Of a stretch of 64,000 nucleotides of DNA, positions 12,001-30,000 are shown piece after piece. Position 1 is the stretch's first letter; each line of letters begins with the position of its first letter. The stretch comes from Escherichia coli. GTDB lineage: Bacteria > Pseudomonadota > Gammaproteobacteria > Enterobacterales > Enterobacteriaceae. Made by a program: the position numbers. The stretch lies in assembly GCF_024502345.1 (NCBI RefSeq), contig NZ_JALDNN010000003.1; one strand, given 5' to 3'.

Positions 12001-15000
12001 CAAAGATTCTCGGTAATACAGGCATCGAGGTACTTCGTGTCGCCAAGGAGTCGCTTAATGACAGCCAGCTGGTTAGCCGCAGACTGAATCAGCGGATAGC
12101 CATTCACGGCACGATGAATACCTGAGTGGAATAACGAACGAGCCTTTCCAATCTTTTCCCGGGTTGCGTCCATTTCCATATCGATAACAGACTGACGCGC
12201 AACATTAATAGCATTGCCGGATAACTCCGCGAAGCTAACCAGAGGCTTATTCATAAAAAACTCCTTCCAGGTATGTGAGCTTATTATATCAATACGGACT
12301 TTGCCCCAAACAACCCGACTCGAAATATTTTGGAAATTACTCTAATAACTAAAAATGGCACCCGGAAAATAGAATGAATTTATTTTAAGCTTGCCGAACA
12401 TGGCTGGCGGCGGAATTAAATTTGGGTAATGACTCCAACTTATTGATAGTGTTTTATGTTCAGATAATGCCCGATGACTTTGTCATGCTGCTCCACCGAT
12501 TTTGAGAACGACAGCGACTTCCGTCCCAGCCGTGCCAGGTGCTGCCTCAGATTCAGGTTATGCCGCTCAATTCGCTGCGTATATCGCTTGCTGATTACGT
12601 GCAGCTTTCCCTTCAGGCGGGATTCATACAGCGGCCAGCCATCCGTCATCCATATCACCACGTCAAAGGGTGACAGCAGGCTCATAAGACGCCCCAGCGT
12701 CGCCATAGTGCGTTCACCGAATACGTGCGCAACAACCGTCTTCCGGAGCCTGTCATACGCGTAAAACAGCCAGCGCTGGCGCGATTTAGCCCCGACGTAT
12801 CCCCACTGTTCGTCCATTTCCGCGCAGACGATGACGTCACTGCCCGGCTGTATGCGCGAGGTTACCGACTGCGGCCTGAGTTTTTTAAATGGCGGAAAAT
12901 CGTGTTGAGGCCAACGCCCATAATGCGGGCGGTTGCCCGGCATCCAACGCCATTCATGGCCATATCAATGATTTTCTGGTGCGTACCGGGTTGAGAAGCG
13001 GTGTAAGTGAACTGCAGTTGCCATGTTTTACGGCAGTGAGAGCAGAGATAGCGCTGATGTCCGGCAGTGCTTTTGCCGTTACGCACCACCCCGTCAGTAG
13101 CTGAACAGGAGGGACAGCTGATAGAAACAGAAGCCACTGGAGCACCTCAAAAACACCATCATACACTAAATCAGTAAGTTGGCAGCATCACCGAAAATAA
13201 AATAGAGAGAGTTTTCAATCCGCATGACTTTAAAAAAGACAATTTTTAGAAATAAGCCGGATAAAAAAATAGCTTTATCCGGCACTCATATTACAACCAG
13301 TTCTTCCGCTTAAAGTACAGATACGGTGCCAGGCCCGCGAGGATCATAAAGATAATCGCGGCAGGGTAGCCGAAGCTCCACTTCAGTTCTGGCATAAACT
13401 CAAAGTTCATGCCATAGCTGGAAGCAACGAGCGTCGGCGGCAGGAATACCACGGATACCACCGAGAAGATTTTGATGATGCGGTTCTGCTCGATGTTGAT
13501 AAAACCCATTGCCGCCTGCATCAGGAAGTTCACCTTCTGGAACAGGGATTCGTTATGCGGCAGCAGGGATTCGATATCTCGCAGGATTTCACGCGCCTGC
13601 TCCAGTTGCCCACCCGGTAAACGCGCTTTACGCACCAGGAAGTTGAGCGCGCGCTGGGTATCCATCAGACACAGGCGAACTTTCCAGCCGATATCTTCCA
13701 GTTCCGCCAGCGTGGAGAGCGCCTCGTCGTACTCATCGCCCTGATGCCCTTCCATAATCACCCGGCTCAACTGCTCCAGGTCGCTATAGATATTTTCAAT
13801 TTCATCTGCCAACTGTTCGATTTTGGTTTCGAACAGATCCAGCAGCAACTCGTAGGCGTTACCGTCTACCATCGACTGGCTACGGGCACGCATACGATAC
13901 AGACGAAAAGCGGGCAGTTCACGCTCACGCAGAGTAAACAGACGACCATCACGGATGGTAAATGCCACAGTGGAGTTACCGGCGTGATCTTCCGCATCTT
14001 CAAAGAAGAAGAAGGAGTGAATATGCAGGCCGTCGTCGTCTTCAAAGAAACGTGCCGATGCTTCGATGTCTTCCAGTTCCGGGCGGGTTGCCAGGCTCTG
14101 GCCAAGTTCAGATTGTAAGCGCAGTCGCTCGTCGTCGTCCGGTTCGACAAGATCAATCCATACTGCATTTACAAGGGGTTGTGACTCTTCGACTTCCAGC
14201 CGGGTCAGTCGGTTATTTTCCAGTTGAAATGCGCTCAGCATGACCGGGACTCCCAATGCTTAAAATATCGGACAGTTCGGTGGGCACACAGAAACAAATT
14301 GGGTTTCAGACCATTAAACAGCCTGACTCAGCGCGACGGGAAAAATTGAGGTCGCTGACAACCGCTAAGGCTATCAGCAAAAAGGGATAGCCTTAGGAGT
14401 TGATCCTGGATGACAGGATAGTGAGCCAGTATCTACTGGGTGTGTCCAAGGCGAATGTCCTCTTAGAGTGATCGTGCGCGCATGTTACGCCAGCAAAATT
14501 TTGCCGTCAACACGCAACAGAACACCACAGAACAATAGTTGAACTTCGCGCTTTTTGGTACTCGTCAAGGTCGCTAACAGGATAAAAAAATCCCACATCC
14601 AGGACCTATAATGGCGCATCAGCTACTCATTGGTAAAGGAATGATCACCTTGAATCTCAAACGGATTTTTCTCGCCCTCACCTTACTTCCCTTGTTTGCT
14701 GTTGCCGCTGATGATTGCGCACTCTCAGATCCGACGCTGACCGTACAGGCGTATACCGTTAATCCTCAAACAGAGCGGGTGAAAATGTACTGGCAAAAAG
14801 CCAATGGCGAAGCGTGGGGAACGTTACATGCTCTGCTGGCGGATATTAATAGTCAGGGTCAGGTGCAGATGGCGATGAACGGCGGCATCTTAAATTTGAC
14901 GGTTTTTGATATAAAATATAGAAAGAAGGAGGTTTTCTGAATACCTCCTTCACTGGCGCTCAGTTCGAGAATACGTTAACGCTGTACCGTTTACCGAGCA

Positions 15001-27000: not shown

Positions 27001-30000
27001 CCTCGACCGTCAGTTGGGTTGCTGTAGGGATATTTTACCAAAGTCGGCTCTCTGGCTAATAAGTAAGAAGTGATTTTTTTCATTCATTGAAGTTTCTTTC
27101 ATATGGAATGAATATTAATTATTTAAACTGACTCGGCCTATTTTAATTATTATTAATCAGGGTATTTAATGTGCAAATTGGCAGGGCGCTGAATTACCGG
27201 GCATCCATTGCCCGGACAGTTTATTAAAAAAAACTGATAATGCCCCGCCGGAGAATTACGCCAATTCCTGTGAAGGCATGGTCTGGCTGAAAAGTTACTT
27301 TTCCCGGTTGCCCTGCCTTGATCCCGTATCGTTTATACCGGTCTGCTCTTACATCCTACCTGGGCAGCAGCTGGCTACGGTGATCGGGTATTAAAATAGA
27401 ACCGGTCTGTTTTACCGCAGATTCAACGCCCCGCACCTAGCGTAAAATCGCCTTTCCCGGATGCCCTCCTTAGTCGTCCGGCACGATGGCGCTACTCCCA
27501 GCGATAAGGGGTAAAATAGTCCTCGTTAACAGCAAGAAATTCGGTCAGGGAATGCATCGCCTTCGTGTCATATGCCGTCACAATAAAACGGTATCCGTCC
27601 ACCGTTTCGATGTAGCTGATCCCCCGTGGCGTGCAACTGGATTTCACAACTTCCGCCGTCATCATAAACTGCCCTTGCGGGAATTCCGGTGACAGGTAGA
27701 TAAAGCCAGTGGTGGCTGATGACGGGTTGGCATTCATCAGCACGCTGTTAAATTGCTTTCCGTGCCGCGCCGGAATCAACGCGCTCCCCGCTGTCGCCTG
27801 AGTCATCAACTGGCGGATCAGGGTTTCCTCTTTATCTGAGCTGTAGGCGCGAACATCATTTTCAGCCCCGGAGCGTGAGTAGACGCCGACATGAGCAAGA
27901 CGTCGGTACTCGTTACGCATATAGGCATGACAGGATGCACCGGCTCGCCCCTGAAGAGTGACGCCAAAGTCTTCACATAACATCAGTACCTGGCGCAGGT
28001 TTTTGTCATAGACCGTGGCAGAGAGCGCCAGGTTATAGCTGATGAATGTCAGCTCAAAAACCCGGGTATGTGCGTCACTAAGGTGTGCCTCCATGCGGAT
28101 CACTGGTTTCTCCGTCATTGGAAACGGCGTACCGGCCAAGCAGTACGAGGTAACATCGCTAAAACACTCGTCGATCACACTGGCAATGACCGTATCGGCG
28201 TCAATGACAGCCGGAGCTGGAACATAAATCTGAAACTGTCCTTCAGTGCCCGGTTGGATCAGGACGGGGTATAGACGCGGGGAATTGAGTTGTTCGCAGT
28301 CGGCATTGATCAGTTCTGTCCAACCGGGTTTTCCGGTGGGAGCATCAAGGCGAAGACCCAGGTTATCGCAGAAGTCGACGATCTGGCGGGAGTGCTCCAC
28401 CATCACTGCCCCGGAGAGTGTCAGACCGTGCGTAACCATCTGCATCTCACTCGTCCGGGTCTGGGAGTTCTGGGACCAGGGCTGTAATGAAAGCGTCGTC
28501 CGACTTAAGGAGGGAATGATGGTTTCATTCAGAGGTTCAATAAGCTGGCAATGCGCATACAGCCGGGTGGCGAGGAAGTCAAATATGAAGCTTGCCTGTT
28601 GTTTTGTGCTGGCCTGAATATAAAACATCGCATCCATGCCTGAATCCCGGGATGAAATACCGGGTGATGCTGCCAACTTACTGATTTAGTGTATGATGGT
28701 GTTTTTGAGGTGCTCCAGTGGCTTCTGTTTCTATCAGCTGTCCCTCCTGTTCAGCTACTGACGGGGTGGTGCGTAACGGCAAAAGCACCGCCGGACATCA
28801 GCGCTATCTCTGCTCTCACTGCCGTAAAACATGGCAACTGCAGTTCACTTACACCGCTTCTCAACCCGGTACGCACCAGAAAATCATTGATATGGCCATG
28901 AATGGCGTTGGATGCCGGGCAACAGCCCGCATTATGGGCGTTGGCCTCAACACGATTTTACGTCACTTAAAAAACTCAGGCCGCAGTCGGTAACCTCGCG
29001 CATACAGCCGGGCAGTGACGTCATCGTCTGCGCGGAAATGGACGAACAGTGGGGATACGTCGGGGCTAAATCGCGCCAGCGCTGGCTGTTTTACGCGTAT
29101 GACAGGCTCCGGAAGACGGTTGTTGCGCACGTATTCGGTGAACGCACTATGGCGACGCTGGGGCGTCTTATGAGCCTGCTGTCACCCTTTGACGTGGTGA
29201 TATGGATGACGGATGGCTGGCCGCTGTATGAATCCCGCCTGAAGGGAAAGCTGCACGTAATCAGCAAGCGATATACGCAGCGAATTGAGCGGCATAACCT
29301 GAATCTGAGGCAGCACCTGGCACGGCTGGGACGGAAGTCGCTGTCGTTCTCAAAATCGGTGGAGCTGCATGACAAAGTCATCGGGCATTATCTGAACATA
29401 AAACACTATCAATAAGTTGGAGTCATTACCGAAATACCGAAAAGTTTCATTTTTTACCTTAATGGATGAGCGATTTATAATCATGCGCCGACAGGTGGAC
29501 GTTATGTACGCCATCGTTCCACTCAAAGAATAGCCGATATTTTGAATTAACTCGAATGGAAGAATACCGGTTTGCGGTCATTCTTAAGCGTTCGTACCGC
29601 AAACTACCAGATAACAATTCGCGTTCGTTTTTAACATTATTTAACGTTTCCAGTCTGCATGAAATCGCATTAATCAGTTCAGCAGGAATGCCTGCCGTGG
29701 ATTTTCCATTACGGAAAAACTTTTCCAATCGCCTGTCTTTAAATGAATGGATCATATTTTCCTCCGTAACGAAATGAGTTTAAATAAATAAGAATTAAAA
29801 AAGCCTAAATCTAATTTATTACATCCCGAGGATTCTGGCTGCGACCGTCAGTTGTTTATCACTTAATGGAAATTTGCGTGATAACGTCGACTTCAGGCTG
29901 TTCAAAAAACTGTTCTCGCCGTCTTGCTGCGTGATGGCGTCCACCAGTTCTTGGTGGTTCTGACACCAGAGGTTGAACGCGGAAGTCTTTGATTGAACAG

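Follow-up and report, generated by a model that had tools for sequence, protein, structure and literature searches.

Two copies of the insertion sequence IS1 stand in opposite orientation at positions 12425-29430 of a 64,000-nucleotide stretch of Escherichia coli DNA (contig NZ_JALDNN010000003.1 of assembly GCF_024502345.1; hereafter the window), and the locus raises the question of whether the two copies form a unit that moves, or inverts, the DNA enclosed by them. The window is part of an IncHI1 conjugative plasmid of the R27/pHCM1 lineage. The two copies very probably represent two unrelated transposition events of different age, and the pair a coincidental inverted repeat around mostly conserved backbone that retains its ancestral orientation. 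The first element (copy A) is old and marks the lineage, being the surviving IS1 of a composite element that carries the corA gene, and the second (copy B) is a recent, private, simple insertion that is unrelated to the copy A event.

Two IS1 elements on an IncHI1 backbone

A PLSDB search with segment 11000-31000 of the window matched hundreds of IncHI1 plasmids at 99.8% identity, and at least 80% of the segment is carried as one colinear place in 147 PLSDB records. Based on BLAST comparisons, the window is colinear with pHCM1 of Salmonella Typhi (S. Typhi) CT18 from 7438 to beyond 61393, with copy B as the sole structural difference, and with pH226B, an IncHI1 plasmid that has no IS1 in the region, except for 12425-14889 and copy B. 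The two IS1 copies enclose 15.47 kb, which can be divided into 1.7 kb of cargo next to copy A and 13.8 kb of backbone (14890-28662, all genes on the minus strand) that is colinear at 99.8% identity with both pH226B and pHCM1, the gene order and orientation being identical. A first-pass annotation of the window had described the enclosed DNA as an accessory block, a description that applies to the 1.7 kb of corA, ysgD and yigE' only.

A repeat search identified a single long inverted repeat in the window, with arms at 12420-13192 and 28663-29435 that are 99% complementary and lie 15,470 nt apart. Reading at the base level trims the arms to two IS1 elements of 768 bp each, copy A at 12425-13192 (insA/insB on the minus strand) and copy B at 28663-29430 (insA/insB on the plus strand), and the additional 5 nt found by the repeat search reflect chance identity of the flanks. 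The boundaries and the opposite orientation given in the first-pass annotation are exact to the base. The right inverted repeat (IRR, GGTAATGAC...) of copy A is at 12425 and its left inverted repeat (IRL) at 13192, and copy B has its IRL at 28663 and its IRR at 29430; the outward-facing ends of the pair are IRR (GGTAATGAC) and the inward-facing ends are IRL (GGTGATGCT). Both copies carry the canonical termini (GGTGATGCTGCC... and GGTAATGACTCC...), the insA and insB reading frames (91 and 167 amino acids) and the A6C frameshift motif (TTAAAAAAC) at IS1 position 305. An 8-9-bp target duplication is present for both, for copy B as its own perfect 9 bp and for copy A only as a unit with its cargo. 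The two copies differ at six positions (65, 465, 468, 471, 507 and 642; 99.2% identity), copy A displaying an IS1B-type and copy B an IS1A-type allele pattern, and none of the six variant bases of copy A is found in copy B. E. coli Z142-1 has close matches to both: copy A is 1 nt away from the left IS1 of the chromosomal corA composite of this strain, and IS1 elements identical to copy B are found there as well as in pRHBSTW-00198_2. Judged by these sequences, copies A and B are different IS1 isoforms and copy B is not a copy of copy A.

The 9-mers that abut copy A differ from each other (TTAAATTTG and GAAAATAAA), which had been read as the border of a rearrangement. Comparison with the empty site of pH226B shows that the insert is 12425-14889, consisting of copy A and 1,697 bp of cargo, and that the whole unit is bracketed by TTAAATTTG at 12416-12424 and 14890-14898. 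The first T of the right-hand duplication is ambiguous and could be the next base of yigE, leaving a duplication of 9 or 8 bp depending on its assignment. Since TTAAATTTG is present as a single copy at the empty site in pH226B, copy A and its cargo moved together in one transposition event, and the supposed rearrangement is a single transposed unit with its own duplication. The cargo (13193-14889, genes mainly on the minus strand) is of E. coli chromosomal origin and includes corA (13291-14241, minus strand), the leader peptide gene ysgD (14393-14449, minus strand) and yigE', the first 279 nt of yigE (14611-14889, plus strand), whose native continuation is ...GGCATC TATGATGAA AGC.... The corA gene had been listed as truncated; it encodes an intact protein of 316 amino acids (TIGR00383 over its full length, E = 1.3e-114), and the truncated gene of the cargo is yigE'.

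Copy B is bordered by a perfect 9-bp duplication at 28654-28662 and 29431-29439 (GAAATACCG on the plus strand, CGGTATTTC on the minus strand), in agreement with its earlier description as a simple insertion. The copy B site carries no IS1 in any PLSDB or RefSeq E. coli record: a 1,768-nt query made of flank, IS1 and flank reached a best coverage of 57%, which corresponds to both flanks without the IS1 (IS1 together with either flank would give ~72%). Furthermore, the 30-nt copy B junction has no exact match in 100,044 GTDB species genomes. The source of copy B would probably be the host genome, and the insertion provides a private marker for this plasmid lineage.

The corA composite and its one-IS1 derivatives

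An IS1 at the identical position, 98 bp downstream of corA, is found in ~205 E. coli genomes, in which the cargo is enclosed by a pair of inverted IS1 copies at sites other than the native corA locus. The complete 3,242-bp IS1-corA-ysgD-yigE'-IS1 element is present in ~141 complete E. coli genomes as a second copy of corA at many chromosomal sites (e.g., 3733-6974 in each of the loci L008 and L009), and the composite also occurs in plasmids of other kinds beside many different neighbor genes. Its insertion in the IncHI2 plasmid pSSE-ATCC-43845 is bordered by a 9-bp duplication of its own, GCCGACGGC. An intact composite also occupies the site of the window in the IncHI1 plasmid pSD134209-1, where it lies between the same pair of backbone genes and its duplication is CAAATTTAA, which is TTAAATTTG read on the opposite strand. 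Identity between the cargo in the window and the segment inside the chromosomal composite is 99.7-100%, with a difference of 1 out of 1,697 nt (a synonymous change in corA) from the composites of strains H6 and Z142-1, and the junction ...ATCACC/GAAAATAAAATAG is the same in both. The second IS1 at the yigE' end is absent from the window, where the cargo ends ...GGCATC(T) and continues directly into the target duplication, ATGATGAA (8-9 bp) and the IS1 being missing. Overall, the element in the window is a derivative of the IS1-corA-IS1 composite and not an intact member. Neither a name nor a description of the composite was found in the literature searched, where the sole remark was on corA being present or absent in the R27-like clade, and the composite appears to be unnamed and undescribed there.

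Forms with one IS1 are present at this site in R27, the 1961 prototype, in the S. Typhi plasmids and in pHCM1. The inner end of the composite reads ...GGCATC TATGATGAA/IS1, which is native yigE sequence; the junction in the window reads ...GGCATC(T)/(T)TAAATTTG/backbone, and that in R27 reads ...GGCATCT/AAATTTAA/backbone, the entire unit being turned around with respect to the backbone. In both orientations, the one-IS1 forms are shorter than the composite by exactly 777 bp, made up of the 768-bp IS1 together with 8 bp of yigE and a single base pair of the outer duplication. At least two haplotypes of the cargo show this loss, as do both of its orientations, and no direct repeat is present at the breakpoints. 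As side observations on the retained IS1, pHCM1 (1861-2595 in locus L006) and most pHCM1-type plasmids carry it as a 735-bp element with a 33-bp deletion at IS1 positions 365-397, and the pHCM1-type plasmid JBQQQW010000002.1 carries a full-length IS1 at the copy A site, like the window.

An alignment of 13 copies of the 1,697-bp cargo contains just 9 variable sites, two of which lie within codon 289 of corA. In the window the codon (13375-13377, minus strand) is AGC and encodes serine. A census of codon 289 with exact 83-nt queries found 55 PLSDB records. Arginine is encoded in all IncHI1-site copies (42 out of 42; 26 CGC, 14 AGG and 2 AGA), with AGG in the pHCM1-type plasmids, AGA in the R27-type plasmids and CGC in the S. 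Typhi plasmids and pSD134209-1, and serine (AGC) is encoded in all eight composites outside the IncHI1 site. The 777-bp loss junction is the same in R27 (AGA) and in the S. Typhi plasmids (CGC together with 132T and 580A), and the intact composite of pSD134209-1 has the latter haplotype as well.

The IS1-corA unit of R27-type plasmids is oriented opposite to that of the pHCM1/window type relative to the backbone, at the same target site. Together with the intact composite in pSD134209-1, this difference implies a flip in situ, and the corA cargo appears, from the compared plasmid sequences, to have been inverted between the inverted IS1 copies of the composite at the IncHI1 site. The 3.2-kb composite would have been assembled on an E. 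coli chromosome and inserted once into the backbone target TTAAATTTG, a state that is preserved in pSD134209-1. Recombination between its own two inverted IS1 copies would then have flipped the cargo and produced the two orientations, and a later loss of 9 bp and of the IS1 adjoining yigE' would have left a 2.46-kb unit still within the target duplication. Candidate mechanisms for the loss of 777 bp are a transposase-mediated adjacent deletion that used a pseudo-end in yigE' and was directed to the same AT-rich hot spot, and excision or circularization of the IS1; alternatively, the one-IS1 forms might be independent insertions of a 2,466-bp unit with 8-bp duplications. The retained end AGATGCCGCC in yigE' contains GATGCCGCC, which is identical to IRL positions 4-12 (GATGCTGCC) at 8 out of 9 positions, and the recurrent identical loss may reflect the use of a chromosomal pseudo-end by the IS1 transposase. 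Slippage between direct repeats was rejected as an explanation for the loss, the breakpoints having just 1 nt of microhomology. An inversion in place of the one-IS1 unit, through the palindromic AAATTT core of the duplication or through intramolecular replicative transposition, was also rejected, as both predict junctions that are off by 1-2 nt in R27 and the window.

Among the competing explanations, the most probable is that copy A and its cargo are an autonomous one-ended unit that inserted directly and repeatedly into IncHI1 plasmids, in both orientations, by means of the pseudo-end in yigE'. Read as 2,466 bp ending ...GGCATCT, the unit displays perfect 8-bp duplications (TAAATTTG in the window and pHCM1, TTAAATTT in R27) and an end point that is identical across all lineages, the far end carries the IRL-like motif described above, and the backbone target has a CGGCGG-rich flank like an IS1 end. 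This explanation requires three independent insertions within 1 bp if the full composite of pSD134209-1 is counted, however, and the haplotype that this composite has in common with the S. Typhi one-IS1 plasmids points to derivation in situ. Furthermore, the IRL-like match lies 2 nt off the true IS1 terminus and a metagenome scan revealed no case of the pseudo-end joined to any other target. Repeated insertion of a one-ended unit is accordingly considered unlikely, and decay of a composite that inserted once remains the preferred account of copy A.

Each of the three arginine codons at position 289 is one step from AGC, and the arginine codons interconvert only by more steps, all of them synonymous, than separate each of them from AGC. 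This suggests three independent origins of the S289R substitution in three IncHI1 sub-lineages, as far as can be read from the codons. Residue 289 directly follows the GMN...MPELKW periplasmic loop of this magnesium, cobalt and nickel channel. The AGG codon was also found in one native chromosomal corA on a metagenome scaffold, and the change is not exclusive to plasmids. No report of CorA S289R was found in the literature searched. Convergent selection on plasmid-borne CorA by three routes to S289R, combined with a recurrent 777-bp loss that reveals pseudo-end use by the IS1 transposase, is proposed tentatively as a reading that we hold to be slightly more doubtful than probable. If true, it would mean convergent selection on a channel subunit carried by a major typhoid resistance plasmid. 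One might speculate that S289R is an allele that poisons the pentamer or alters its selectivity, and the pattern provides a testable hypothesis for the presence of an additional magnesium/cobalt channel gene on typhoid plasmids.

Orientation of the enclosed segment

The first-pass annotation had added that inverted IS1 pairs can invert or mobilize the segment between them, a statement that is legitimate in principle and has a precedent in the apparent flip of the corA cargo; for the 15.5-kb segment itself no inversion was found. The orientation of the segment relative to both flanks is the same as in pHCM1 and pH226B. Both target duplications are intact, each directly around its own element, which argues against a single inversion between copies A and B since such an event would separate the duplications from their elements. 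The two copies are also non-chimeric, which argues against a fixed crossover within IS1 positions 65-642 since this would yield reciprocal chimeras. No A-B inversion is fixed in the sequence as assembled. An inversion isomer was not found in PLSDB, RefSeq E. coli or the GTDB genomes; short junctions are uninformative on isomers, as recombination inside IS1 leaves each junction of an end with its flank intact. Only one orientation of the segment, and no other context for the block, was seen in the available sequences, and the dynamic part of the first-pass claim fails by this measure.

The copies A and B might nevertheless be an active inversion switch, with RecA-mediated exchange maintaining both orientations in the population and the assembly displaying the major isomer. 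Repeats of 768 bp with 99.2% identity give RecA more than sufficient homology, the corA cargo is found in both orientations at the same site across IncHI1 plasmids (best explained by a flip between IS1 copies), and IS-mediated inversions are documented in pHCM1 and pAKU_1 (bioRxiv 10.1101/334409). The database searches, the non-chimeric IS1 copies and the parental configuration of both duplications all stand against a switch, and a flip would set a 15-kb array of co-directional genes against its neighbors. There is also no sign of a regulated function, with neither an invertase nor a promoter at the boundary: no recombinase family was identified among the 10 block proteins scanned, and the repeats are whole IS1 elements and not the short crossover sites of a programmed invertible element. 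An active switch is quite improbable on this evidence. RecA-dependent inversion, or transposition from the two outward IRR ends, could in principle act on the A-B pair, but neither has left a trace.

The remaining explanation, a functional 17-kb composite transposon that moved in as a unit or is about to move out, can appeal to two intact-looking IS1 copies with both IRR facing outward and to the co-transposition of inverted IS1 pairs seen in the corA composite, but it is scarcely credible, and as a history of the pair already refuted, because the outer 9-mers differ (TTAAATTTG and GAAATACCG) with a separate duplication for each IS1 or unit in place of one around the whole, copies A and B are different isoforms, the interior is backbone that is colinear with plasmids lacking either IS1 (e.g., pH226B), and no such unit was found elsewhere (PLSDB and RefSeq E. 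coli, with the copy B junction also searched in the GTDB genomes). The first-pass annotation had likewise concluded that the pair did not arrive as one composite transposon, which is borne out by the outer flanks, the isoforms and the absence of copy B from every relative.

Several observations weigh against the account of two unrelated insertions around an uninverted backbone, or limit it. The absence of isomers from databases is weak evidence on the dynamics within a culture, and an even number of inversions with crossovers outside IS1 positions 65-642 would leave no mark. The proposed order of events would include a full composite in flipped orientation at the IncHI1 site, which was found neither with a synthetic 3,843-nt query nor among the PLSDB composites inspected. 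The second IS1 may have been lost by any of several routes, the identical 777-bp loss being seen in at least two haplotypes and both orientations. The exact plasmid of the window is not in PLSDB or RefSeq E. coli, and with the replicon in no searched collection there are no close relatives with copy B for comparison. Finally, the unit in the window is unlike that of the pHCM1-type relatives in having an intact IS1B-type IS1 and a corA gene with Ser289. It may belong to a basal lineage, or recombination with a chromosomal composite may have refreshed the unit; the composite of Z142-1 differs from it by 1 nt in the IS1 and 1 nt in the cargo, and the backbone single-nucleotide polymorphisms among IncHI1 lineages (0-2 per 2 kb) are too few to place the window.

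Neighboring genes and comparison with known systems

Copy B interrupts a conserved backbone gene for a protein of 393 amino acids (WP_000765095, annotated in some records as flavin reductase), the body of which lies at 27492-28662 on the minus strand. The insertion is inside codon 7, the first 20 nt of the gene remain at 29431-29450, and the reading frame is kept from Gly5 by the copy B duplication. An in-frame TTG in the IRL of the IS1 (28676-28674) could in principle restart translation, with a predicted product that begins (M)AASP-GISS... compared with the native MKLF-GISS...; no outward promoter was predicted. The protein has no match in Pfam, NCBIfam, PADLOC or the PDB sequences. A gene for a HigB-like toxin of the RelE/ParE type (29459-29755, minus strand; PF05015, E = 3.3e-16) ends 8 nt upstream of the 393-amino-acid gene, and copy B now lies between them. 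The disruption of the gene that follows the toxin gene could affect plasmid stability, and if the 393-amino-acid protein is an antitoxin, consequences for plasmid stability or for the viability of the host are to be expected.

The 13.8-kb backbone segment between the cargo and copy B contains, based on family matches, genes for a DUF6012 protein (18961-19569), a protein with an HNH motif (19600-20136) and a DndC-like protein of 809 amino acids with a PAPS-reductase domain (22260-24689), as well as DUF3085 and DUF957 genes and many hypothetical genes, all on the minus strand. Membership of the DndC-like protein in a Dnd DNA-phosphorothioation system was rejected (TIGR03183 score of 113.9 against a cut-off of 290.4), and no matches of the dndA, dndB, dndD or dndE type were found among the scanned neighbors; the protein is a PAPS-reductase-domain backbone protein of IncHI1 plasmids.

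Two further observations concern regions away from the IS1 pair. The IncHI1 colinearity ends at 7437/7438, and positions 1-7437 are unrelated mobile DNA with its left end beyond the window, which is 99.9% identical to E. coli plasmids of ~304 kb and 93% identical to Klebsiella and Raoultella plasmids and is annotated in these relatives with an ISNCY/ISLad2 transposase, integrases and an IS3-family transposase. At 54869-55408, ~500 bp are self-similar at ~75% identity with a 44-bp offset and give secondary BLAST matches to pHCM1 43476-44015. The region, probably an array of iterons or other repeats, is located downstream of the second gene for a replication initiator of the RepB family (pHCM1 42127-43002).

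Inverted IS1 pairs are routine on large resistance plasmids, and as an ordinary example the A-B pair matters little in itself, apart from being a place at which ambiguous assembly is to be expected and inversion or deletion is possible. It is outweighed by what came to light alongside it, namely a widespread corA composite whose decayed remnant marks the R27/pHCM1 lineage, the apparent flip of its cargo in situ, and the S289R substitution, apparently convergent, in the CorA of IncHI1-borne copies.

Compared with known systems, copies A and B show no substantial difference from IS1 as known from E. coli, Shigella and R plasmids (isoforms IS1A and IS1B): both have 768 bp, ~23-bp imperfect terminal inverted repeats (GGTGATGCTGCCAACTTACTGAT and GGTAATGACTCCAACTTATTGAT), insA and insB' joined by the A6C -1 frameshift, and a 9-bp duplication, and the 6 nt between them are natural allelic variation. 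IS-mediated inversions have been observed in the sequenced IncHI1 plasmids pHCM1, pMAK1 and pAKU_1 (bioRxiv 10.1101/334409), which belong to the same plasmid family and follow the same principle of homologous recombination or intramolecular transposition between inverted IS copies; those inversions were seen in sequenced plasmids, whereas none was observed for the A-B segment. Adjacent deletion by IS1, and excision or circle formation at low frequency, have been described (Turlan and Chandler 1995; Sekine et al. 1997, as cited in bioRxiv 10.1101/2023.06.07.543989). These processes resemble the loss of the second IS1 and 9 bp as candidate mechanisms, but a classical adjacent deletion keeps the causative IS, whereas here the IS was lost, which would need a pseudo-end or excision and resealing.

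Tn9 and Tn1681 are composite transposons flanked by IS1, with the IS1 copies inverted in Tn1681. Tn6062 is the betU transposon of IncHI1 plasmids (bioRxiv 10.1101/334409). The A-B pair differs from such IS1 composite transposons in having no common duplication, in enclosing backbone and in never having been seen as a unit. The corA element is like them in its inverted IS1 copies, its 1.7-kb cargo, its 9-bp duplications at two independent sites and its many chromosomal locations, and the window carries it in a form in which only one of its two IS1 copies survives.

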